Of a stretch of 64,000 bases of DNA, positions 4,271 to 62,935 are shown one piece after another. Below the pieces are notes generated by a model. That model was given only the letters and a program-made list of their open reading frames with translations, had not been told where the DNA came from and searched no databases. Origin of the DNA: Candidatus Woesearchaeota archaeon. GTDB taxonomy: Archaea > Nanobdellota > Nanobdellia > Woesearchaeales > JACPBV01. The position numbers and the translations under genes were made by a program. The first letter of the stretch is position 1, and the number at the start of each line of letters is the position of its first letter. The DNA is taken from NCBI GenBank assembly GCA_016180135.1, contig JACPBV010000004.1, forward strand, positions 26,868-90,867, read 5' to 3'.

Positions 4271-6202
4271 ATGAGCATTTTCACAATCTTGCTATTCTTC
4301 CTCTACACCTACGGCCTAGGCTTTTCCATAACCTTCTTCTTCAAAAACGCAGAAAACTTCTTCGAAAGGCACATCATGAGGGTAGGGATCGGCCTTGCAG
4401 TGCTCCCCTTTCTCCTCGTCGTCCTGGACATTTTCAGAATTCCCCTCGACTGGAAGCTGGTTTTAGGCCTTTCCTTAGCCATCCCCATCTACCGCCTTCT
4501 GAAGGGCAGAAGGGGCATACCATCTAGCCTCAGTCTTCCGCAGCTTAAGGTTACCAGGTCCGGGCTTAACGCTCTTATTATTTTTATAATCTTCGTCATC
4601 ACCTTCTATATGTATTCCTCAGGCGCATTCAGCTACGCTTACCTCGAGGATGATGACCCCTGGGCGCATGCCGTCGGCGTAAAGTATGTGGCGATGGAAA
4701 AAAATTTTGATGACCCTGAAAACAACCTCTTTTACATTAAGACGTATCCTCCGGGATATGACGGCCTGCTCGGCATCCTCCACCAGACTTCCCCATCATT
4801 GCTGTGGACGATGAAGTTCTTTAATGCGCTTATCATCTCTTTAGGCATTTTCTTCTTCTATTATTTCGCAAAAAATTTCATGCAGAGCGAAAGGAAAGCC
4901 CTTTATGCCGCACTTGCCCTTGCCATGCTTCCTTCCTACTTGAGCCATTTCATCTGGGCGCATAGCCTGGTCATCACCCAATTCATCGTCTCCCTGTATT
5001 GCATTGAGATGCTCAGGCAGGAAAAGCGCTGGTCGCTCCCCATCGCATTAACGATAGCGGGAGCAGCTGTCGTCCAGCCTGACCAGCCGATTAAATTCCT
5101 GGTGATGTATATTATCTATTTCGCCATTAGCAGCATCGCAGAAAAAAAGTTCCAGTGGAGGCTTGCGCTTGCCGTCAAGTCCGGCTATCTTCTTTCGCTG
5201 GCATGGTGGGGCTTTAACGCCGGTAATTTCTTTAGCAGATTCTTCTCTTACAACCGTGCAAGGGCAGGGATAGATGCAGCAGCCTCATCATCATTATCAT
5301 CATCGTCATTATCCTCATCTTTGCTGGAAAAGCCGCTGCTTGAAAAAGCCTGGAGCGCCATTACCTCTACGTTCCCCCCCAACAGCGGAACAGCGACAAG
5401 AGCCTACACCTTCAATGATTTTTTTGTCGCAAAATCCCAGAACCTGATCAACAATCCTATCGGCATCGGCATTGCGCTTTCCCTTCTTGCGGTTATCGGA
5501 ATCCTCCTTATCCTTGCAGCCTGGAAAACGATGGGCAGGGAAAAAAAGCGATGGACTGCAATTGCTCTTTTTTGGCTTCTCTTCGCTTTTCTGGGAGTCA
5601 ACAGCCTCACCTTCCACCTTCCCGTCGGGCTTTTTGCATTCCGTTTTTGGATGCTGATGGCCATCCCCCTCTCGATCTTAGCGGGAGAGGGCATTGATTC
5701 AGTCGCCCGGTTGGGGAAGGGCATAGGGATTCCAAGGGCGCTCACTTCCATACTCCTCATCACTGCACTATTCTTCACAGGGGGGGTCCAGAAATATGCA
5801 GTAAACACCGCTCAATGGTATCCCGGCCAGTTCTGGACTTCAAACGAAGAGATTCAGGGCTATGTCTGGCTTACCACGCTTCCCGTAAACACCAAAGTTT
5901 TCTCATACTCTAACGACGAACAGGTCATCGGGATGGACAAGTTCAGCTGCCAGTGGTGCAGCGAAGTTGTTGAATTCAGAAAAGGCCTGCTGGAAAAGAA
6001 TATCTCAGAAGCCTATCCCTGGCTGAAGCAGCAAAACTACGAGTATGTGATGGTAGACGGGATGACGGTCAAAAACTTTCAGGCGCAGTATGGCAATGCT
6101 ACAGCGCAGCTGGTGAACCAAAAGATAAGCGAAATTGCCTCATCAGGAAAATTCCAGCCGGCATTCCAGAATCAGGGCGTGGTAGTCTTTAAGGTCATTT
6201 AG
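4271..6202 (+). CDS. polytopic membrane protein, GT-C-fold glycosyltransferase-like (ArnT/PMT/STT3-like), with a soluble C-terminal domain
   Basis: There are more than 10 predicted TM segments. An acidic first-loop motif YLEDDDPWAHAVGVKY resembles the GT-C catalytic loop. No WWDYG motif is present. A Ser/Leu microsatellite stretch (SSSLSSSSLSSS) is also present. Confidence 0.5.
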   Translation: MSIFTILLFFLYTYGLGFSITFFFKNAENFFERHIMRVGIGLAVLPFLLVVLDIFRIPLDWKLVLGLSLAIPIYRLLKGRRGIPSSLSLPQLKVTRSGLNALIIFIIFVITFYMYSSGAFSYAYLEDDDPWAHAVGVKYVAMEKNFDDPENNLFYIKTYPPGYDGLLGILHQTSPSLLWTMKFFNALIISLGIFFFYYFAKNFMQSERKALYAALALAMLPSYLSHFIWAHSLVITQFIVSLYCIEMLRQEKRWSLPIALTIAGAAVVQPDQPIKFLVMYIIYFAISSIAEKKFQWRLALAVKSGYLLSLAWWGFNAGNFFSRFFSYNRARAGIDAAASSSLSSSSLSSSLLEKPLLEKAWSAITSTFPPNSGTATRAYTFNDFFVAKSQNLINNPIGIGIALSLLAVIGILLILAAWKTMGREKKRWTAIALFWLLFAFLGVNSLTFHLPVGLFAFRFWMLMAIPLSILAGEGIDSVARLGKGIGIPRALTSILLITALFFTGGVQKYAVNTAQWYPGQFWTSNEEIQGYVWLTTLPVNTKVFSYSNDEQVIGMDKFSCQWCSEVVEFRKGLLEKNISEAYPWLKQQNYEYVMVDGMTVKNFQAQYGNATAQLVNQKISEIASSGKFQPAFQNQGVVVFKVI

Positions 6203-7845: not shown

Positions 7846-7905
7846 CTATGAATCACTTTTCCGCAGGAGCGGCTCTGCCGCCTAAGGTCAAAACTCAATT
7901 GACAT
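7846..7905. mobile_element. solo 5-prime-arm fragment of the family-B hairpin element
   Basis: tatgaat...ccgcaggagcggctctgccgcctaaggtcaaaactcaattgac matches the B 5-prime arm (ccggcaagagcggctctgccatcctaaggtcaaaactcaact). No matching 3-prime arm follows. Confidence 0.5.
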
Positions 7906-10828: not shown

Positions 10829-11242
10829 TTTATCGTGCTCAATTCTTGAAAGAAATTCCGCAGGCGTCAGGATAGAAACTCCCTGGTATTGTTTTAGTTT
10901 GAGAAGGTGCCTGTCTCCAGTCACAATGAACTCTGCCTTTGCGGCAATTGCGCAGGACAGCACCTTGTCATCCTTAGGGTCTTCTTGGACAGCAATAACT
11001 TGGATGGTAGGTTCGATTATTGTTGAAATTGTTTTGAAAAGGCTTATCTGACGTTGGATAAACTCTTCAGGCACATCAAAGTCCCTTTTTTGGCTTTCTT
11101 CCATCTCCAAAAGCATCTCTGGTGAGGTAAAGCTGCTGATCTGCTGCTGGAGCGCAAGCCGGACAATGGCGTGGGGTTTTCCTAGCTCCCAAAAAATTGA
11201 AGAGATCAGGATATTGGTATCCAGCACAACCCTTTCAGGCAT
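10811..11242 (-). CDS. PIN-domain toxin (VapC-like)
   Basis: VVLDTNILISS (N-terminal acidic Asp) ... FIVTGDRHLLKL... matches the PIN_3-type pattern. It lies immediately downstream of an AbrB-type antitoxin. Confidence 0.8.
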   Translation of the reverse strand: MPERVVLDTNILISSIFWELGKPHAIVRLALQQQISSFTSPEMLLEMEESQKRDFDVPEEFIQRQISLFKTISTIIEPTIQVIAVQEDPKDDKVLSCAIAAKAEFIVTGDRHLLKLKQYQGVSILTPAEFLSRIEHDKGAGAG

Positions 11243-15657: not shown

Positions 15658-15690
15658 GATTTAGGGGCGGTTTAAAAGCTTTATCCTCTG

Positions 15691-15864
15691 GTATGTATTA
15701 AGCTCCGGCAAGAGCGGCTCTGCCATCCTAAGGTCAAAACTCAACTATCAAACTAAATCGCGCTCGTCGTGGGGGGATGCCCCCTCGGGGACACAGAGCC
15801 CTTGCCAAATCAATTGGGAGTTTTGAAGAGGGCAGAGCCGCTCCAAGGGGAGCTTAATACATAC
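15691..15864. mobile_element. family-B long-hairpin MITE-like element, copy B1 (174 nt)
   Basis: The 16-bp terminal inverted repeat is gtatgtattaagctcc / ggagcttaatacatac. Inner perfect stems are gagcggctctgcc/ggcagagccgctc (13 bp) and tcaaaactc/gagttttga (9 bp). The GC-rich core is ggggggatgccccctcggggacacagagcc. The flanking 8-mers match only imperfectly (atcctctg vs cttctgca). Confidence 0.7.
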
Positions 15865-20948: not shown

Positions 20949-21003
20949 AAGGAAAACCTGAGATGGGAAAAACTGAGAGTGTATTTAAAGATTTGTGTGT
21001 TTG

Positions 21004-21177
21004 GTATGAATTAAGCTCCGGCAAGAGCAGCTCTGCCATCCTAAAGTCAAAACTCCATCCAAAAAGACAGCCAGCCCGTTGCGGGGGGTTGTCCCTTACG
21101 GGGACGCAGGGCCATCGCCAGACTTATCGGGAGTTTTGAAGATGGCAGAGCCGCTCCGAGGGGAGCTTAATTTATAC
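21004..21177. mobile_element. family-B long-hairpin MITE-like element, copy B2 (174 nt)
   Basis: The inverted repeat is gtatgaattaagctcc / ggagcttaatttatac. The same 13-bp and 9-bp inner stems are present. The core is gcggggggttgtcccttacggggacgcagggcc. The flanking 8-mers tgtgtttg / ggtgtttg match 7 of 8. Confidence 0.75.
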
Positions 21178-24525: not shown

Positions 24526-24714
24526 GTTTGCTGACTCTCCTTTTGATAATCTATACTTACGGAAAAAAATAATTATACAATTGTTGTCCGTTCGTAATAA
24601 GCCAACGACAACTTTTTGTCTAAATATTTGCGTCGTTGGCTATATTATATGCTCAGGAATTATTCCGCAAAGTCTGAACCCTCTTTCAAATTCATCAAAT
24701 AAATTAGCGCTATA

Positions 24715-24829
24715 GAAAATTTCAACAACCTCGGCGAGGCGAGGCTGGGGGTCGCCCCATCGGGGTAGCCGAGCAGGGCAAATTTCCAGAGGAAATTTGA
24801 CCGTCGAGCCATGTGTTGTTGAAATTTTC
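24715..24829 (+). repeat. family-A structured repeat, copy A1 (115 nt)
   Basis: A 15-bp closing stem gaaaatttcaacaac / gttgttgaaattttc encloses ctcggc...gtcgag, a GC hairpin (ggctg-ggggtcgccccatcgggg-tagcc) and the hairpin caaatttcc-aga-ggaaatttg. Confidence 0.75.
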
Positions 24830-24858
24830 GCGCATTGCACCTCATAAGAGGTGTCTTT

Positions 24859-26823: not shown

Positions 26824-26853
26824 TGTTGAGTCAGCATCTCCCTGCGGGCGGTT

Positions 26854-27003
26854 AAATGCAAATATTCCACCAGTCTTTGACTGGTGGTTGACGCTCGATT
26901 AGACGTTGGGAATATTTGCCTTCTCAGAAATCCGACCCGAGCGACCGAAGGGAGCGAGCAATCCCCCCCGTCTGTGACGGGGGGTGGTCGGATTTCTTTT
27001 GAA
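26854..27003 (+). repeat. family-D two-domain structured repeat, copy D1 (~150 nt)
   Basis: Domain 1 is gcaaatattcc/ggaatatttgc enclosing ccaccagtc-ttt-gactggtgg. Domain 2 is agaaatccgacc/ggtcggatttct enclosing cgagcgaccgaagggagcgagc and ccccccgtc-tgt-gacgggggg. Confidence 0.7.
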
Positions 27004-27058: not shown

Positions 27059-27628
27059 CTATTTTTTTAGCCTGCACCGGACGACGAGAGACTGCCCGAA
27101 GAGCCTGCTGGAGATAAACGGAACTCTAATCACAGGAATAAATCCTCTGTTAAAGGTGATTTTCTCGATGGTGAAAAAATCGGGGAGCTGCCAGAGGAAG
27201 AAGGGGTTGACGTGGTGGGGCTGCTCCCGTGCATTGAATTCGATGAACTTGTTCCGGAAAAGATACAGCGCCCGGTTGAAGAGATTATTGATATTAGGGG
27301 TCGAAAATACAAATATTCCGCCGTTCTTCAGGATTCTCTTTACTTCTCTGAAGAAATGATACTTGTTTTCCAGATGCTCAACAACTTCTGTGGAGATTGC
27401 CGCATCAAAGCTCCCGTCAGGATAATCTATGCTCTTGTTGAAATCCATAATCTTTGCTTTTCCGTCAAAATTATCAGCAAGGTCGCAGTAGCTCACATGG
27501 GTAAACCCTTTCTTCCAGAGCTCAGTCACAATAAACCCCCGTCCGCAGCCAAGATCCACTATCTTTTTCTCCCTTCCGACATCGTCAAGAAGCCCCAGTG
27601 CAGCCTCATAAGTCCCCGGATACGCCAT
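27059..27628 (-). CDS. class I SAM-dependent methyltransferase
   Basis: IVDLGCGRGFIVTELWKKGFTHVSYCDL and GGIFVFSTPN are present. Confidence 0.75.
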   Translation of the reverse strand: MAYPGTYEAALGLLDDVGREKKIVDLGCGRGFIVTELWKKGFTHVSYCDLADNFDGKAKIMDFNKSIDYPDGSFDAAISTEVVEHLENKYHFFREVKRILKNGGIFVFSTPNINNLFNRALYLFRNKFIEFNAREQPHHVNPFFLWQLPDFFTIEKITFNRGFIPVIRVPFISSRLFGQSLVVRCRLKK

Positions 27629-27688
27629 GCTGCTGAAATTTCAGCAATGTTTAAAAAGGTTCCTCTATTCGAAGAATAAGGAAAAATC

Positions 27689-27987
27689 GTATGTATTAAG
27701 CTCCGGCAAGAGCGGCTCTGCCATCCTAATGTCAAAAACTGTTGTTTTTGAGCATGCTCAGAAATCGTAACTATTATAATAAGATATGACGATTTCTGAC
27801 AGGTCAAAACTCAACTGTCTAACTGAATCACGCTCGTAGTGGGGGGATGCCCCCTCGGGGACACAGAGCCCCTGCCAAATCAGTCAAGAGTTTTGAAAAC
27901 CCTAAGAAGCGAAGTTTCGTGGGTGCCAATAATGCGCAAGCATTATTAAGCATGGCAGAGGCGCTCCAAGGGGAGCTTAATACATAC
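27689..27987. mobile_element. family-B element, copy B3 (299 nt), carrying two nested insertions
   Basis: Same 16-bp inverted repeat and core as B1. Perfect 8-bp flanking duplication gaaaaatc (27681-27688 and 27988-27995). Relative to B1 there are extra segments of about 70 nt in the 5-prime arm and about 55 nt in the 3-prime arm. Confidence 0.8.
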
Positions 27988-28000
27988 GAAAAATCACAAA

Positions 28001-28990
28001 ATGGCGCAGAAAAAAGCCCTTATAACAGGAATCACCGGCCAGGACGGCTCGTATTTGGCAGAATTGCTCCTGAAGAAAGGCTATCAGGTCTTTGGGATGT
28101 TCAGGCGCTCGAGCAATGACCCCTTTGACAGGATCAGAAATATCCTGGGAAAAATTCAGGTTATGGGCGGCGACCTCACGGACCAGGCCTCAATGCTTGA
28201 GATCATCAAAAAAGTTCATCCCGACGAAGTCTATAATCTTGCTGCGCAGAGTTTTGTCCCGACGTCCTGGGAGCAGCCCATCCTCACGGGAGAGGTGACT
28301 GCTTTGGGCGTTACCAGGATTCTCGAAGCGATCAGGCACGTTGACCCTAAGATCAAGTTTTACAATGCCGCATCCAGCGAGATGTTCGGCAAGGTCACCC
28401 AGACGCCTCAGAATGAGTCCACTCCCTTTTATCCGAGAAGCCCCTATGGTGTCTCAAAGGTCTATGGGTTTTACATCACAAAAAATTACCGGGAAAGCTA
28501 CGGGATGTTTGCCGTCAACGGTATCCTCTTCAATCACGAAAGCCCGAGGCGTGGCCTGCAGTTTGTGACGAGGAAGATCTCTCACGGTGTTGCATGCATC
28601 AAGCTTGGCCTTCAGAAAGAGCTCCTGCTCGGCAATCTGGATGCGAAGCGTGACTGGGGATATGCCCCTGAATACACTGAAGCGATGCATCTGATGATGC
28701 AGCATAAGCATCCCGAGGATTTTGTCATTGCCACCGGAGAGATGCACAGCGTCAGGGAATTCTGCGAGGCAGCATTCACCCACGCCGGCCTTGACTACAG
28801 AGATTATGTAAAAACAGACCCATTATTCCTCAGACCCGCAGAAGTCGACCTTCTTGTTGGCGATATCTCAAAAGCCAAAAAGCTCTTGGGCTGGCAGCCA
28901 AAAGTGAAGTGCAGAGAATTGGCAGAGCTGATGGTTGATGCGGATTTGGCTCTGATGAAGGGCGCCCACAAACCCCAAAGTCTTTCTTAA
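28001..28990 (+). CDS. gmd: GDP-mannose 4,6-dehydratase
   Basis: [44 protein letters not shown] and NHESPRRG are hallmark Gmd motifs. Confidence 0.93.
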
Positions 28991-29078: not shown

Positions 29079-29230
29079 GAAAATTTCAACAACATCGGCG
29101 AGGCGAGGGAGGGCCGCCCTCCGTCCGCAGACCGGAACGCTGGATTATCCCTCCGTCCGCAGACCGGAACGCTGGATTATCCCTCCGTCCGCAGACCGGA
29201 ACGCTTTTTTTTCCCTCCGTCCGTTTTCTC
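29079..29230 (+). repeat. family-A element, copy A3: 5-prime half only, followed by tandem expansion
   Basis: It starts gaaaatttcaacaacatcggcgaggcgaggg as other A copies do, then runs into 32-nt tandem units. No gttgttgaaattttc 3-prime arm is present. Confidence 0.6.
29117..29223 (+). repeat. perfect 32-nt tandem repeat (ccctccgtccgcagaccggaacgctggattat), 2 full units plus 24-nt and 11-nt partial units
   Basis: Units read directly at 29117-29148, 29149-29180 and 29181-29204, then T8, then ccctccgtccg. Confidence 0.9.
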
Positions 29231-43065: not shown

Positions 43066-43184
43066 GAAAATCCCAACAACAAAGGGCTCGACGGTCAAAT
43101 TTTTCTCTGAGAAAAATTTGCCCTGCTCGGGCACCCCGATGGGGCGACCCCCGCCCTCGCCTCGCCGATGTTGTTGGGATTTTC
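43066..43184 (-). repeat. family-A structured repeat, copy A2 (119 nt, inverted orientation)
   Basis: The closing stem is gaaaatcccaacaac / gttgttgggattttc. It differs from other copies by three compensatory pairs. The inner modules are conserved in reverse complement. Confidence 0.75.
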
Positions 43185-43238
43185 CAAATGCAGTCTATTT
43201 TTTTCTTCGACGGAGCTTAATACCTGCATTTCAGGGTT

Positions 43239-45790: not shown

Positions 45791-45812
45791 AGGGGAGGTA
45801 TTTTTCCCAAAA

Positions 45813-45933
45813 GAAAATTTCAACAACATCGGCGAGGCGAGGGCGGGGGTTTGTCCCTTACGGGGTGCCCGAGCAGGGCAAAATTTCCACAGAGGAAATT
45901 TTGACCGTCGAGCCCTTTGTTGTTGAAATTTTC
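45813..45933 (+). repeat. family-A structured repeat, copy A4 (121 nt)
   Basis: Same closing stem as A1. The inner hairpins are gggcg-ggggtttgtcccttacgggg-tgccc and caaaatttcc-acaga-ggaaattttg. Confidence 0.75.
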
Positions 45934-46032
45934 GCACATTGCAACCTAAAACTGCAGTTATGGGGAAGTGCGTTGATTGGGGGACACAATAGGGATTTAC
46001 ATCAATCCCCTTTACAACACCATTCGAGTATT

Positions 46033-46180
46033 AAATGCAAATATTCCACCAGTCTCTGACTGGTGGTTGACTCTCGATTAGCCATTGGGAATATTTGCCT
46101 TCTCAGAAATCCGACCCGAGCGACCGAAGGGAGCGAGTAATCCCCCCGTCTGTGACGGGAGGTGGTCGGATTTCTTTTGA
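46033..46180 (+). repeat. family-D two-domain structured repeat, copy D2
   Basis: More than 90 percent identical by eye to D1 (26854-27003), with the same four stems. Confidence 0.7.
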
Positions 46181-46254
46181 ATAATTGCGGCAAATGTAGC
46201 ATAACTACTGCAATTATCTATATTTTTCTGATGTAGAAGTTTTATCCAATATCT

Positions 46255-47211: not shown

Positions 47212-47502
47212 TTGGCTTCAAAAGAAGGCATGGAGACGGATGTAGACAGAGTTCTTGCTAGTGTCAGGAAGAAGCGTTTGCTGATGGAAGTCGAGGTCAA
47301 GGGCCTCATCGAGAAGAAGGAAGAGGAAATTTCCATCCCCTTAAGCATTTTCTCGGAGAGATTAGGCATGCTTGAGTCTATCGTTCATTATCTCAGGGAT
47401 TCTCATGGGCTTTCTTTTACAGAGATTGCAGGGCATCTAAAGCGGGACTACAAGACAGTCTGGGCGACATATCAGCAGGCAAAGAAAAAGTATAAGCGAT
47501 GA
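47212..47502 (+). CDS. small helix-turn-helix protein (sigma-70 region-4 / LuxR-like HTH), translationally coupled to the giant ORF
   Basis: LGMLESIVHYLRDSHGLSFTEIAGHLKRDYKTVWATYQQAKKK looks like an HTH. The stop overlaps the giant-ORF ATG (ATGA at 47499-47502). The start may be TTG 47212 or ATG 47230. A TATA-like ctttataaac lies at 47181-47190. Confidence 0.55.
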   Translation: MASKEGMETDVDRVLASVRKKRLLMEVEVKGLIEKKEEEISIPLSIFSERLGMLESIVHYLRDSHGLSFTEIAGHLKRDYKTVWATYQQAKKKYKR

Positions 47503-50500
47503 AACAATCCAGCAAAGTTAAGGAAATCAGCGCAGGCATAAGGGAGCTCAGGCTCTCAGGGAAAAATGCCGATAATGCCAGAAAGAGCTATGCAAGGCTG
47601 CTGGAAGCCTTGCTTCAGGAAAAAGAAAAACTGCAGTCTCATCTCAGCAAAGGGATTCTATCAGAGCAGAACTATGATCAGATTCTCCAGGAAAATCTTG
47701 ACGGCAAAACCAGGATGCAATGGATTGCCTATTGTGAAAATATCCTTGGCAGCGCAGATTCCAAAAAACAGCAGTATCGCCGATGGGTCGGAGTTCTTGA
47801 GGACGACATTGGCCGGATTAAACGATCTTTCAGGAAGGGAAGCATCTCCCAGGAAGCATACCATCATCTCCTGAACCAGAAGATTGAGGGAAAAACCAGG
47901 GAAGGATGGATTGTATCCGCAAAAATGGCGTTGTATGGTCTGGAAGAGGGTGAATCCCTGGCGGGCGCTCAGGGAATTTTAAGCCGCAGCGCATCGTCAG
48001 TAATCAGAGCATCAAAATCGCTGCTAGAAGAGAAAAAGGAACTCCTCGTTAACACCGCCCCTATAATATTGATGCTCTTGCTTCTCAGCCTCTCAGCTTT
48101 TTTTATCAGCCCGGCGCACACCGGATTTGCAGTCATAAGCATAGAGAATGGATTTGAGGATTCCTTAAACCTCTCCCTCAACGGGTCATCCTCATTCCTC
48201 TGGGCCCCGGCCAGCCACGGAATGATAACGAACATTGCAGTCAGCGGAAGGCTTTCAAAAGGTGCCGGAGCAAAAATCTACCTCGAAAAGGCCGGCAGGC
48301 TTTATCTGCTCCTTGATACTGAAGCTGGCTTGAAGACAGAAACAGTTTTGCAGGAAATTCCCGGCATTGCTGCTGGAATCAGTTCCCTCCCGCAGCAAAA
48401 GATCCCCCTCACCGGAGAGATTGAAAACCTATCTGTTGCCCTTATCGGCTCAGGGCCAGTTCAATCAGCAAATGATATATTTAAATTCGGCTTGAAGCAA
48501 AGGGCAGGATTAGACAACAGCTCTTCAGTCCCTGATGAGAACTTCTGCGCACTATGGAAAGTGAACAATGTTTCGGCAGAGTGCTATGGAAATGCTGACT
48601 GCTGCAGTTTTGCGGGCCTCGAAGCCAGTGGCTCCTGGAATGATACGTTCTACCTGTATTCCGGAAGATTCAGCGCAAAGAAAGACAATCTCATTGAGCC
48701 AATCCTTATCTCTTACGATGTCAATCTGAGCATCCCGAAGTCCGATATTAGGATTTCCTCCGCAGTTGCGGAAGCCCATTTTGCGGATGAGCTGGAGAGA
48801 TTCAGCCTTGCATGCATGGAAACGTGCAGCGGCCTGGAGTTTAACGAATCGCGATACTCTCTTGTTGTCTCTTTGGCAATTGGCTCGCTCATCCTTGACA
48901 GCATCTCTTACAAAATGGCCGAAAGCTATAACGTATCAGAAAATTCCCCTCTGCTCCAAAAGAACATCTCTAATGTGTCGCTCTACCAAAACGAAAACAT
49001 CACGTTAAGCCTTAATGATTTCTTTGCCGATGCAGACTCCGATGCGCTGGTATACTATGCTTATCCTGCAGAAAATATCAGCTTTTCTTTTTACCAGGGG
49101 AACATCACCGTCATCCCTGATAAGGATTTCCTCGGCAAAGCATCAACATTTTTTACTGCCTCAGACGGCTTTTTTAATGCCACTTCAGGAATAATTGATA
49201 TTGAGGTTGCTGAAAAGCCGCTCCTCCCGGCTCAGGTATCGGTCACCCAAACTCCCATAAAACCCAAGGTAAGGGTCAATGAGCCGGTGAAATGGGTTAC
49301 AAGAGTTAATTCCACCAGGAAAGTCATAAACCTCACGATGAGCCTGGCGCACGGGGCTGAGAACATCTCCGTCAGAGAATTGACTCAGGGCAGCATTGAT
49401 ACCTCAAGAGTCATTGATACATCCAAAGTGATTGATACATCCAAAGTGATTGATACCTCAAGAGTCATTGATACTGCTGGATTCATGAATCTTAAATCAG
49501 TATTTGTCAGCGAGCAGGGCCAGACTAAAAACCTCTCGCTCTATAATGCCGAAAAGTATTTGGCCAGGCTTGAATCCAGGGAGGAGATGCTTATTGAAAC
49601 CAAAAGGGGAAAGATTAAAAATGACCCGACGGAAATTGAAGCTCTGAAATCTCTTAACACCCAATTGCGTGATGTTGAAAACGAGAAAAACCGGATTACA
49701 GGATTTGTTGTTGCCCAAAGAGGGCAGAAAGGCATTATAACCCGATTTTTTGAATGGCTCATCCAATCAGACCTCGTCGGATTTGCCATCCTCAACGCCC
49801 CATTAGCTCCAATCACCACTCCCTCCACTAATCTCATCCCCACCCCCACAACTAATCACGCCACTAACTCCTTCCCCACTCCCTCCACTAATCTCATCCC
49901 CACCCCCACAACTAATCTTGAAGAGCCTGGCGAAAATGCCCATCCCCCAGTATTGACGATTGCCGAGGGGATTAAAGAAGCCGAGATTACTTATTTCACG
50001 GAAGCTCCGGTTGCCGAGGAATTCAATCTGTCAGAGTCAGGCAAGCGCATTATCATCAGCTCAGACATCCACTATGAAAACATTACGGCTTTCACTTACC
50101 TCCCCGGCGAATATGCCTCTTCAGGCATCCATCTGTATTGGATGAAAAACGGCTCAAGGGAAGAGGTAAATTTCACAGCATTTGATGAAAACAATAACGG
50201 CAGGATTGATTATATCGAATGGATCATCCCCTCGTTGTCAAACCAGACATATGATCTCTCCCTCACCATCATCACACTGAAGAGTTATCCTATCATTGGA
50301 AGAAACTGGACGACAGAGTTTAATGTTTCCGGCACAGCAAACCTCACGATCACTGCAGTCAACAGCACAAGTTTTGGCCAGGTCTACGTTGACAATTTCT
50401 CCTCGGAAGACGACCTCTATCTCAGGGAACTGAAATGCGGTAATCTCACCGTATGGAACAACGGCACAAATTATTCATCAGGCAATGTTTTCTTCGTCCT

Positions 50501-53500
50501 CAGCAATGGCACCGAGGCAGCCTGGAGCGAAACATTCGGAAACAGCCTTCCAGTAACTTCCTTAAAAGTTGTTGACTTCAGCTGCAGCAGTTCAGCGTAT
50601 CACATTGTCAAGGTTGAAACCCACGGGGACCATGTCCAGGAATTCACTTTTGGAAATATCACAAAATATGCTTACAATCATGCAGGGGGGACAGCATGCG
50701 GTTCAGACGGCCTCGGCTCAACCTGCCAGGGAGGGGGAAATGCCAGCCTTGACACGTGCATTGATACTGACAGCTCTAACACGCTTGATGGGTCGGATTT
50801 CTGCCATGGCGCTAACCAATGCCTTGATTCCCATATCGGCGCTTCCTGCAACTATGCCACCGGCCCGACATCAGGGCTCTGCGCCTACAACGGTGCAACC
50901 TCTGCAACCTGCTCAAACCTCGTAATCTCCGGGGAGTATGGCACAGGCATAACTGGCGGTTCTTCAGTAAACTTCCACAGCGGCAATGAAAATTCATCAT
51001 GCTCCCCTGCATCAGAGATGATGGTCTGCAATATCTCTACGGGATACAACCCTCAGGGCGGTGATCTCTGCCTCGACTCATCATGCACGGATCCTGCAAG
51101 CGGGATTGTTTCCCTTAACTGCATCGATCAATCCTGCTCAACGTCGGATGTCAGTGATGCGGCAGTATTCGGCGACTGTAATGCCACGGGCGGAGGCTGG
51201 GCCTGTGACAGCAGCCTTGGCTCATCAGGGTTTGCCCAGGACGGGATTTGCTCAGTGACCTCTGGATTTAACACCTATGGGTGCGCAGCTTCCGGATATA
51301 TCTGCAATGCTACCTCGGGCCCTTTTGCCGGAACTATCTTCAAAAATGGCTGCGGTGTTGGCATGGAGTGTTCAGACAACGATCCCTGCGACTCCTCATT
51401 GACAGACGGCAATTTCAATAAGGCAGCAGGCACATGCTCGGGCACAGACTGTGTCGGTGTCGCAGTTGCCAGCATCTATGCATTCAACCACTCTAAAACC
51501 TCGCCGACAAGCCTCTACCTCGTGAACGGCTCAGTGAACTCCTCCGTCATCAACGGAACAAATATAACCCATAATCAGACCTTAAACTTTACCCACCCGA
51601 CGTTTGGCCTTCGGCTCCAGATTATCGCAAACTTCTCAAGCTGGGATGTTGACATTTCCAACCTTACCATTGACGCAAACAACTTCAGCACTGCCGTGAA
51701 TTGGACATTTGTTGACCAGAGAGCTGTCCCCAAGAATCACACGCTCTACGTCCCCAACACCCTCCAGCTTGGCGTGTATGCATGCGGAACAGCAAACAGC
51801 ACAGGGGAAGTTTTCCCAAAATGCCCGAACAGGACGGTCTGGACGGACTCGGAATTGGGGGCAGGCTCGGTCGTCGTAAGGAATGGGCTCGTAGCGTATG
51901 AGCTTTCTAATCGTTACGTTGTCTCCAACCTTTCGGGCTCCGGAATAGGTCAGGGTGTTGCAGAATGCGGAGCGCTAAACCGTGAGAACGTCACCTATAA
52001 CCTCCTTCAGTCAGTCACTGATACTGACACCTGTTTCACAATCTCCGCCAATAATGTTACGCTTGACTGCAACAATTTTTCCATCACTTATGCAACTGCA
52101 GCTAACGGTAATGGCATCACCGTCAGCAATGTAAACAGGACAACGATCAGGAACTGCACCTTCATCAAGACCTCCGGTCAGGGCTCCTCATATGCCGTTC
52201 AGTTGTCTGGAGCAAACAATGCATCCATCAGCAACAGCTCATTCACTGCTGCTTCTTTAATTTCTTACCCGATTTACCTGACTTCATCCTCAAGGACAAA
52301 CCTGATTCAGAACAACAACATCACCGCTTCAGGAGGGAGCCCCGGAATCTATATTGATTCTTCCTCGGGACAGAACATCATCCTTAACAACAACATTACG
52401 ACTGTCGCAGCCTCGGCGCCTGCTGTTTACATCACTGGCTCTTCCAACAACACCCTTGACGGGAACAATATCACCACCGCCGGAAAAGCATCGTTCGGCA
52501 TACAGCTTGATGCCTCATCTTTTAACACAACTATAATCTTTAACAACATTACGACCGAAGGGAACTCATCTCACGCAGTCTATATCCTTGCAGCCTCAAA
52601 CTTTACCAAAGTATTGAAAAATGTAATCATCACAAAAGGATGGACATCATCCGGTATCATGATTTCTGATGCGTCATACAATATGGCCGAGAACAACTCC
52701 CTGGATATCCTCAACAGCACTAACGCAGCCTTTTACATCAACCAAAGCTCGCTTGCAAACAGCTTTTCAAAAAACAATGTGACTTTCTCAAGAGGGGACG
52801 CAATCCATATCATCTATGACCCGAAGCCGACCTCAGATGGGGGGCCTGTCCCGAGGTTCAATAATTTCTCGAACAACACGTTCTCCAATATATCCGGCTT
52901 TGACCTGATGCTCACCCCTATGATAAGTGCTCCCGGAGTTTCCCAGATAAACCTTACCACCCTGATTGACCAGCCCATAAAGAGATACAACTTCACCAAT
53001 TATGGCGGCTTGTTTGCCATAAGGTCATCCGAATTTGGGGAAATCGCTTTTTTCACCGTCATCAACGGCTCAGGAACAAATTTCAGCAATGATATTATCA
53101 TCAAAAATAATTCTATCACAGTTAATGCTTCAGCAGGGAATGGAATATTCAACAGCTCAGCAAACCTTACATTCTTTAACCTAGGGGACAGGGGCTTTGC
53201 CAATCCCGCCATTCTTTACAACGGTGGAACGTGTGATTTAACCACCTCCCCGCTCTGCCTGAACTTTACCGGCCTTACTGCTGCGACGGTCATCTTGAAT
53301 GTTACTCATTTCAGCAATTACAGCATCGGGGGTCAGGTTGATTTAAGCACACCTACTGTCTCTGTCATCTCGCCAACGCACAGGAACTACACGCTAAGGC
53401 AGATCGACTTCAACATTTCCCTGAATGAGGCAGGGAGCGCATGCAAAATGGCATTGGACAGCGAGGGAAATATCACGATGAGCGCTGTAAACAGCTCTTA

Positions 53501-62603: not shown

Positions 62604-62608
62604 AAAAA

Positions 62609-62844
62609 GAAAATTTCAACAACATTGGCGAGGCGAGGGTGGGGCCGCCCTCCGTTGCGAAGCAACCGGAACGCAGGATTATTCCTCCGTCCGCAGACCG
62701 GAACGCTTTTCCCCCCCATCGGGGTGCCCGAGCAGGGCAAAATTTTCGCGGAGAAACCTCCGAGCGGTAGCGAGCGAGGCACAAAAAACCCTAAAGGGTT
62801 TTTTCGTGAATTTGACCGTCGAGCCCTTCGTTGTTGAAATTTTC
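62609..62844 (+). repeat. family-A structured repeat, copy A5 (236 nt, expanded)
   Basis: It has the canonical closing stem. Two copies of the ccctcc-hairpin-ggaacgc submodule are inserted in the GC hairpin, and the AT hairpin is enlarged. Confidence 0.7.
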
Positions 62845-62935
62845 TGCGCAATGCAGCTTATAAAGAACCCACAAAACCTGTTTTATTTAACCGTCTTTTT
62901 CAGAAAGCTTTAAAACAATTCTTTGACTTATGCCT

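Follow-up and report, generated by a model that had tools for sequence, protein, structure and literature searches.

Several described systems bear comparison with B3, a 299-nt repeat copy directly upstream of gmd, the gene of GDP-mannose 4,6-dehydratase, in a 64,000-nt stretch of DNA from a Candidatus Woesearchaeota archaeon (assembly GCA_016180135.1, contig JACPBV010000004.1, positions 26,868 to 90,867), which was analysed as a whole and is called the window below. Yeast Ty3 integrates at Pol III start sites via TFIIIB, to whose components TBP and TFB are homologous, and Dictyostelium TRE5-A integrates upstream of tRNA genes. Palindrome-associated elements (PATEs) derived from IS200/IS605 have been described for haloarchaea, and 8-bp target-site duplications are made by several families of insertion sequences (IS6, IS1595, ISL3, IS66, IS256, and ISH6). 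[quoted passage not shown] MITE-dense woesearchaeal genomes are on record, one survey reporting a Woesearchaea genome with 105 cMITEs/Mb (PMC11602168).

Like the prokaryotic MITEs of Sulfolobus and Halobacterium and the cMITEs of that survey, the repeat family of B3 (the B family) is short and non-coding, has terminal inverted repeats and a target-site duplication of fixed length, and consists of multiple intergenic copies that fold into hairpins and are present or absent between related genomes. Unlike them, it has no parent insertion sequence that was found in the window or the loci examined, and it is strongly associated with TATA boxes, on one side only and at a constant distance. As a whole, the locus is best explained by B3 being a copy of a non-autonomous DNA transposon (a MITE) in the spacer between a divergent methyltransferase gene and gmd, with a nested module, a reading that we consider very probable. 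The element type itself is ordinary; of most note are the constant distance that most copies keep from TATA boxes and the micro-modules that are nested in them. The locus would amount to a natural experiment, in which a mobile element parts a putatively leaderless gene from the TATA box that it shares with a divergent neighbour in an uncultivated DPANN archaeon.

B3 as an insertion in the methyltransferase-gmd spacer

The two copies of GAAAAATC at the flanks of B3, reported as identical 8-mers in the preliminary description of this DNA, directly abut terminal inverted repeats that are perfect over 16/16 nt and start with GTATG (Table 1). The chance of an 8/8 match at fixed flanking positions is about 2e-5 (0.26^8, this base composition), and the terminal 16-mer GTATGTATTAAGCTCC has seven matches in the window at three or fewer mismatches, compared to 0.32 expected by chance. 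These perfect ends sit in imperfect inverted arms of roughly 40 nt (inverted repeat I7: 41 nt, 83% complementary). B3 folds as a single long hairpin with a dG of -125.7 kcal/mol (z = -9.7), a fold to which such inverted arms give rise. With sizes of 174-299 nt and no open reading frame (ORF) contained in the element, the copies are small and non-coding.

An empty site was found in a related Woesearchaeota metagenome-assembled genome (MAG), JACPBU01 (GCA_016180165.1). Its contig 110 (JACPBU010000110, locus L012) is syntenic with the window, where the surroundings of B3 are a glycan-synthesis cluster, and has the gene order NTP-transferase, epimerase, GT4, and methyltransferase, followed divergently by gmd, GT9, and a PMT_2 protein. 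The start codons of its methyltransferase and gmd genes are just 51 nt apart with no element between them, and the first 30 nt of this spacer align to window positions 27629-27680. Because this syntenic locus has a 51-nt spacer without the element, and because of the 8-bp duplications, B3 is best regarded as a MITE insertion in the window's lineage and not as a conserved leader. The earlier reading of B3 as a transposition footprint is supported by this empty site, an insertion-free gmd upstream region of the kind whose comparison had been proposed, and by 8-bp duplications at other copies. At NCBI, a Candidatus Woesearchaeota MAG has a protein that matches the window Gmd with 100% identity.

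Three full B copies and one remnant are located in the window and six copies in the related MAG. The latter were recovered with an exact 19-mer from the left arm, which was searched against a collection of one genome per species that did not include the window's own genome. It matched six contigs of JACPBU01 and three bacterial sequences that had no likeness beyond the 19-mer; about four chance matches are expected by our estimate. By this one exact 19-mer, the B family is present in just one genome of the collection, that of the related Woesearchaeota MAG. Scans of viral contigs for the left arm gave no match. The duplication is 8/8 in B3 and, among the five complete copies of the related genome, in L006, L007, and L010, likewise 8/8 in L009 provided that its right end lost 2 nt, and 7/8 in B2 and L005. 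The core type of B2 also occurs in L007. Across the two genomes, B copies (those of the window versus L005, L009, and L010) share 89-95% identity, whereas the orthologous gmd and methyltransferase genes (window versus L012) are about 73% identical in DNA. This disparity, a further difference from the described prokaryotic MITEs, points to recent activity or exchange of the B family, or to constraint. The insertion of B3 itself would have been the work of a transposase that acts in trans and cuts its target with an 8-bp stagger. L012 was ruled out as an empty site for B2, its spacer there not being homologous. An isolated match to the right end of B (GGAGCTTAATACCTGC, two mismatches) at 43212-43227, beside a copy of another repeat family (family A, see below), may be a remnant or chance.

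The very stable fold (z = -8 to -9.7) and three base pairs that are changed on both sides across copies would also suit a B3 that is not mobile DNA at all but encodes a structured RNA or serves gmd as a leader that regulates it in cis. We regard this as highly improbable: it is at odds with the 8-bp duplications and the empty site, the copies adjoin unrelated genes in either orientation, and the arms are nearly invariant with a negligible covariation term of -0.26, while paired changes at the ends are expected of the inverted repeats of transposon subfamilies as well. Rfam searches of B3 at gathering and permissive thresholds returned no family and microRNA-like noise only, and nothing for the related loci; a tRNA/tmRNA search had no match. 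An archaeal signal recognition particle RNA is present in the window.

Table 1. Coordinates of B3, its parts, the neighbouring genes, and the other B copies in the window
Feature	Position	Strand	Remarks
B3	27689-27987	.	299 nt, putative MITE copy of the long-3' subfamily, plus private 5' module
Left 8-bp target-site duplication GAAAAATC	27681-27688	.	abuts left terminal repeat
Right 8-bp target-site duplication GAAAAATC	27988-27995	.	
Left terminal inverted repeat GTATGTATTAAGCTCC	27689-27704	+	imperfect arm runs to about 27727
Right terminal inverted repeat, reverse complement of GTATGTATTAAGCTCC	27972-27987	-	holds candidate TATA 27976-27986
5' segment, 72 nt, private to B3	about 27729-27800	+	two-hairpin module; placement ambiguous by <=9 nt
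5' module hairpin 1	27732-27751	+	TCAAAAAC-tgtt-GTTTTTGA
5' module hairpin 2	27758-27799	+	TCAGAAATCGT-20 nt-ACGATTTCTGA
Inner hairpin and core common to all B copies (TCAAAACTC...GAGTTTTGA)	27804-27896	+	apical G/C-rich stem-loop
3' segment, 53 nt	27899-27951	+	two small hairpins; extra relative to B1/B2; marks a subfamily
Native TATA box TTTAAAAA/TTTTTAAA	27650-27657	.	common to divergent methyltransferase and gmd; scores 8.5 bits on one strand and 8.9 bits on the other
gmd (GDP-mannose 4,6-dehydratase)	28001-28990	+	PF16363 (GDP_Man_Dehyd), E = 1e-127; intact
Divergent methyltransferase gene	27059-27628	-	Pfam Methyltransf_11; synteny with L012
B1	15691-15864	.	174 nt, short form; no in-register duplication
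B2	21004-21177	.	174 nt, divergent-core subfamily; duplication 7/8
Remnant of a fourth B copy (left half, degraded)	about 7848-7900	+	repeat family D10

Promoter context of gmd

A TATA matrix was built from the upstream regions of 19 first-in-operon genes. A TTTAWAWA-type box above 6 bits is present in 13 of these genes (7.4-10.2 bits), with 3' ends at -21 to -34 from the ATG and one outlier at -48. As the median 3' end lies at -24, the genes here probably have mostly leaderless or very short-leader mRNAs; internal genes carry GGAGG-type sites. At the empty site (L012, 5088-5138) one TTTAAAAA box lies 22 nt upstream of both divergent ATGs (3' end at -23), which suggests a single TATA shared by two divergent leaderless genes. 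The gmd box of a third Woesearchaeota genome (L037, 2426-2500) also ends at -23, and there two separate boxes take the place of one shared box.

In the window this native box is intact, 31 nt left of B3 and at -29..-22 from the methyltransferase ATG. Given the TATA geometry in the window genome and the two relatives, its start for gmd on the + strand is predicted at about 27680, just before B3. The target 8-mer of B3 would begin at this predicted start, so that the left duplication equals about +1..+8 of the predicted ancestral gmd transcript. The insertion into the 65-nt spacer between the two genes would leave the methyltransferase promoter untouched and place 307 nt of DNA that pairs strongly with itself between gmd and its TATA box. 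The gmd ATG is now 343 nt from the box and close to the end of the element, as had been noted before, with 13 intervening nt.

From this proximity, the preliminary description concluded that a promoter of gmd could only be situated within the element and that the terminal CTTAATACATA (27976-27986) is its only AT-rich candidate. Neither statement is supported: the native TATA box survives upstream and its predicted start precedes 27689, and other AT-rich stretches of the element lie at 27771-27783, 27891-27899, and 27928-27949. An element-borne promoter with CTTAATACATA as its TATA box would agree with the absence of a TATA-like box between element and ATG, with the intact gmd gene, and with the known capacity of mobile elements to create promoters (PMC10969869); being inverted repeats, the two ends also have one and the same outward-facing sequence. 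However, the right end of B3 has no TATA box of normal strength. Its best 8-mer, TTAATACA at -24..-17, scores 2.6 bits compared to the 7.4-10.2 bits of the 13/19 called sites, and with a box ending at -17 the predicted start would fall inside the ORF, which offers no usable start codon further down; the next in-frame ATG follows the GxxGxxG motif. Genes facing the same end at B1 and B2 moreover retain their own TATA boxes 12-14 nt away. On the + strand of 27629-28000, boxes above 5 bits are found only at 27650-27657 (8.5 bits) and 27892-27899 (TTTGAAAA, 6.8 bits). The latter, which is the best internal match of the element, is formed at the junction of core and 3' segment, and at a chance rate of about 1.7 per kb some 0.5 such boxes are expected in 299 nt. 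A new promoter in the element end is in our view improbable, and less likely than read-through from the native TATA box.

Provided that gmd expression persists, its likeliest route would lead from the native TATA box through the element and result in a leader of about 320 nt. A transcript entering gmd from upstream of 27689 is predicted because the native box survives and the terminal candidate is both weak and too near to the ATG. Such a transcript would have a -126 kcal/mol hairpin and one T5 run to pass and no Shine-Dalgarno sequence before the ATG, of the kind that the internal genes do use; for these reasons, reduced or lost gmd expression is a serious alternative. Silencing or strong reduction of gmd by a recent insertion, tolerated via a paralogue or another pathway, agrees with the perfect duplication and perfect terminal repeats, which suggest a young insertion, and with a second gmd in the related MAG (P0051, 70% identical to the window Gmd). 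We nevertheless judge it somewhat unlikely, as the gmd ORF is intact and full-length, the same junction is present in an independent short-read assembly seen in four samples, which argues that the allele is established in the population, and no second gmd was seen within the window. The three possible outcomes for gmd are read-through of the 300-nt hairpin, a new start site, and loss of expression. Look-up of gmd retrieved one 1.2-kb contig only, which is broken inside the element, and an exact protein look-up of the methyltransferase, aimed at empty-site alleles in the same population, gave no match. An in-frame upstream extension of gmd into B3 was rejected; a stop codon is located at 27947-27949 and no start codon follows it.

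Several points weigh against B3 as a MITE that is read through from the native promoter. With the element removed, the 3' end of the native box would stand at -37 relative to the ATG of today and not at -23. The ancestral gmd may have had about 14 nt of leader, or may have started at 27679-27681, a triplet that now reads AGG, lies in frame with gmd, and aligns to ATGAAAA of L012; either would fit. The only T5 run on the + strand of B3 (27747-27751, in the 5' module) could partly end read-through, and start site, read-through, and expression of gmd are all matters that we infer. B1 has no 8-bp duplication in register. A transposase domain was found in none of the 30 window ORFs tested, and the search for an autonomous partner revealed no extra end-pairs in the fetched loci and, in the 19-mer scan of the genome collection, MITE-sized copies only. 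The informative B copies are eight, from two genomes, and their spacing to TATA boxes (see below) was noticed post hoc on this small sample.

The two extra segments of B3

B3 had previously been described as carrying about 70 additional nt with a hairpin in its 5' arm and about 55 additional nt with a palindrome in its 3' arm, from which it was concluded that elements insert into elements. Both segments are present, with 72 and 53 nt, respectively. The conclusion holds for the 5' segment, which is missing from all eight other B copies and has homologues outside B elements, but not for the 3' segment, which is a feature of a subfamily. A search for free-standing copies, which had likewise been proposed, had the same outcome, as it recovered 5' module homologues outside B elements and none of the 3' segment. 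Scans of viral contigs for both segments gave no match.

The 5' segment is composed of two adjacent hairpins joined by GCATGC. Its placement is ambiguous because GTCAAAA(A)C is repeated at 27731-27739 and 27803-27810. These direct repeats had been taken as the bounds of the segment; they are present, yet a short repeat at the junction, together with the likeness of the 5' stems in adjoining hairpins, accounts for them better. When metagenomes were scanned for the stems of hairpin 2, 23 matches were obtained, most of them unrelated hairpins in which the 11-mer occurs by coincidence. Two modules, L026 (= L018 = L032) and L035, match the 5' module beyond the stem pattern, with GTCAAGAAC...GTTCTTGAGCATGC before it and CATGTC after it. 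Compared to B3, they have a compensating A/G plus T/C change in the first stem and entirely different loops; among these modules too, stems and junctions are conserved and loops unrelated. In L026 the module (about 10888-10995) occupies a site within the 5' end of a gene for ribosomal protein L6 on a Woesearchaeota-like contig. This insert of 108 nt (36 codons) is in frame, contains no stop, and is placed between codons 7 and 8, with the N-terminal codons kept on both flanks and a (T)GTC repeat at the junctions. Two relatives, L039 and L040 (94% and 88% protein identity), are without exactly those 108 nt and have empty sites at about 1521 in each. Because of these two close L6 relatives, the two-hairpin module is itself probably an insertion unit, which is proven for the L6 homologue and not for the B3 copy.

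Like the Rickettsia palindromic elements (PMC10969869), the L026 homologue is an in-frame, stop-free palindromic insertion of 108 nt in an essential gene and is absent from relatives. In contrast to them, the module is hosted by an archaeon, has 72-108 nt in two adjacent hairpins with conserved stems and unrelated loops, and also nests in another mobile element; a single coding insertion was seen. As in PATEs, both ends of the 5' module carry a hairpin, the stems of which are related (TCAARAAC, TCAGAAAT), and terminal inverted repeats are lacking; both documented module insertions lie directly 3' of (T/G)GTC. It is much smaller than PATEs, and the 3-4-nt repeat at both junctions is indistinguishable from a short duplication. 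The module thus resembles Rickettsia palindromic elements in behaviour and IS200/IS605 derivatives in architecture, a likeness that establishes no membership. The nested two-hairpin module and its in-frame occurrence in an L6 gene suggest that DPANN genomes are shaped by mobile palindromic units of very small size. Among the matches of the metagenome scan, at least nine hairpin repeat copies with the 11-nt stems TCAGAAATCGT/ACGATTTCTGA, GC-rich loops, and GAGGTG/CACCTC extensions were observed in a high-GC organism of metagenome Ga0210040 (L016, L019, L020, L022-L024, L027, L028, and L033) and are probably a coincidence of the search pattern.

The 3' segment, with its palindrome AATAATGC-GCAA-GCATTATT at 27928-27947, is shared by L006, L009, and L010 at 88-95% identity. 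Being common to four copies in two genomes, it is a subfamily feature that moves with the element and is not private to B3. Outside B copies it was not found in the window, the fetched loci, or the viral contigs. Its junctions (GAA|AACC...TTAAGC|ATGG versus GAAG|ATGG) fit an old insertion and a deletion in the short form alike. With nested insertions dispensed with, the long form would be ancestral and B1 and B2 would be deletion derivatives. Such a history accommodates the junctions, the presence of the 3' segment in four copies where it has diverged like the rest of the element, and the core variants of the short copies L005 and L002, which match those of long copies. Yet the short form is a clean palindrome in which the 3' segment would have no partner in the 5' arm, the 5' segment is present in 1/9 copies and its homologues are demonstrably inserted elsewhere, and other copies have different inserts at a third site. 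On this evidence we consider a long ancestral form without any nested insertion unlikely.

The third site is the apical loop, where other B copies carry further inserts, and nesting of small modules is general in these repeats. A second two-hairpin module (CCTCCGAGCGGTAGCGAGCGAGG plus CACAAAAAA..loop..TTTTTTCGTG) occurs in a family-A repeat (window 62757-62808) and in the apical loop of a B copy (L006, 3399-3448), with identical stems and different loops. A 32-nt unit, CCCTCCGTCCGCAGACCGGAACGCTGGATTAT, is found within the apical G/C hairpin of repeats that belong to B or to family A, as a single unit or in head-to-tail triplets and always after a GGG..CCG context. It was observed in window regions 29099-29208 (arrays at 29121-29204) and 62665-62710 (at 62687), and in L007 (2850-2950), L010 (5640-5680), and L005 (2605-2624).

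Spacing of B copies to TATA boxes and other repeats

B1 is located 12 nt from the TATA box (15671-15678) of a minus-strand CDP-alcohol phosphatidyltransferase gene and B2 14 nt from that (20982-20989) of a minus-strand NTP-transferase gene. Both gaps include the 8-bp duplication, and both promoters are left intact. A strong box lies at 14 nt from L009 and L010 and at 14 or 16 nt from L005; the nearest strong box is 37 nt from L006 and 31 nt from B3, and L007 has none. Five of the eight copies are thus at 12-16 nt from a strong TATA box, a spacing found for 3.6% of intergenic positions in the window (P about 3e-6), and the related-genome copies alone, taken as a hold-out, have 3/5 at that spacing (P about 4e-4). 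B2, L009, and L010 have the identical layout TATTTAAA-N6-duplication (P < 1e-7); this 8-mer occurs 12 times in 112 kb, three times exactly 6 nt from a B duplication. As 60-90 nt of intergenic space were free at B1 and B2, the position was not forced by lack of room. The element can have either of its ends toward the box, and the box-to-gene distance varies while the box-to-element distance does not. The usual layout of the B family would be element, 8-bp duplication, about 6 nt, and TATA box, and B3 would be an atypical landing on the downstream side of the box.

Candidate causes of the spacing are a choice of target guided by DNA to which TBP/TFB are bound, recognition of TATTTAAA, a sequence similar to the TATTAAG at the end of the element itself, or selection. 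As in Ty3 and TRE5-A, the B copies keep a fixed distance to a core promoter element in a gene-dense genome and leave the promoter functional (a 'safe haven'). In contrast to these, B is a putative DNA transposon derivative in an archaeon, its association derives from 5/8 copies, and its spacing could instead reflect recognition of TATTTAAA itself, protein tethering being hypothetical here. Tentatively, B may be a promoter-targeting transposon with an 8-bp target 6 nt upstream of TATA, at the outer edge of the TFB recognition element (BRE), accompanied by a separate class of 72-108-nt two-hairpin micro-elements; we think this conceivable, if short of probable. If true, the mechanism would be a reading of promoter DNA bound by TBP/TFB, or TATTTAAA would be taken as a pseudo-end. 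Copies would then be parked safely in a gene-dense DPANN genome, with B3 as an exception that went astray to the transcription start of a leaderless gene, and micro-elements with conserved stems and free loops would invade repeats and, in frame, ribosomal protein genes. Should the fixed spacing be confirmed on more copies, we know of no earlier archaeal element that is positioned relative to a core promoter. Near the L010 copy, at about 5400-5510 on the minus strand and just downstream of the TATA box, we observed a sequence like the 5' half of a tRNA (GCCCCGTAGTGCAGCGGTCAAGCATACGGGCCTTTGG) with an anticodon-loop-like CUUUGG; ARAGORN, also with introns allowed, detected no complete tRNA in it.

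Family A has the ends GAAAATTTCAACAAC/GTTGTTGAAATTTTC and was observed at window positions 24714-24839, 45812-45943, 43066-43184 (inverted), and 62608-62854, as a truncated copy at 29079-29113, and in L009 (424-533). Its apical motif (GGGGGTCGCCCCATCGGGG or GGGGGTTTGTCCCTTACGGGG) comes in variants that B copies have as well. The family-A copies showed no clean duplication, and the family was unusable as a control for TATA spacing, its ends and duplications not being clean enough. A third repeat of about 150 nt (families D7, D9, and D16) has two copies with 96-98% identity (26852-27003 and 46031-46181), which start with TTAAATGCAAATATTCCACCAG and end in a CCCCCCGTCTGTGACGGGGGG hairpin. Elsewhere in the window, a 4988-aa ORF with internal repeats spans 47499-62465, and a 12-nt tandem repeat array at 1028-1183 lies within a glycosyltransferase ORF (281-2002).

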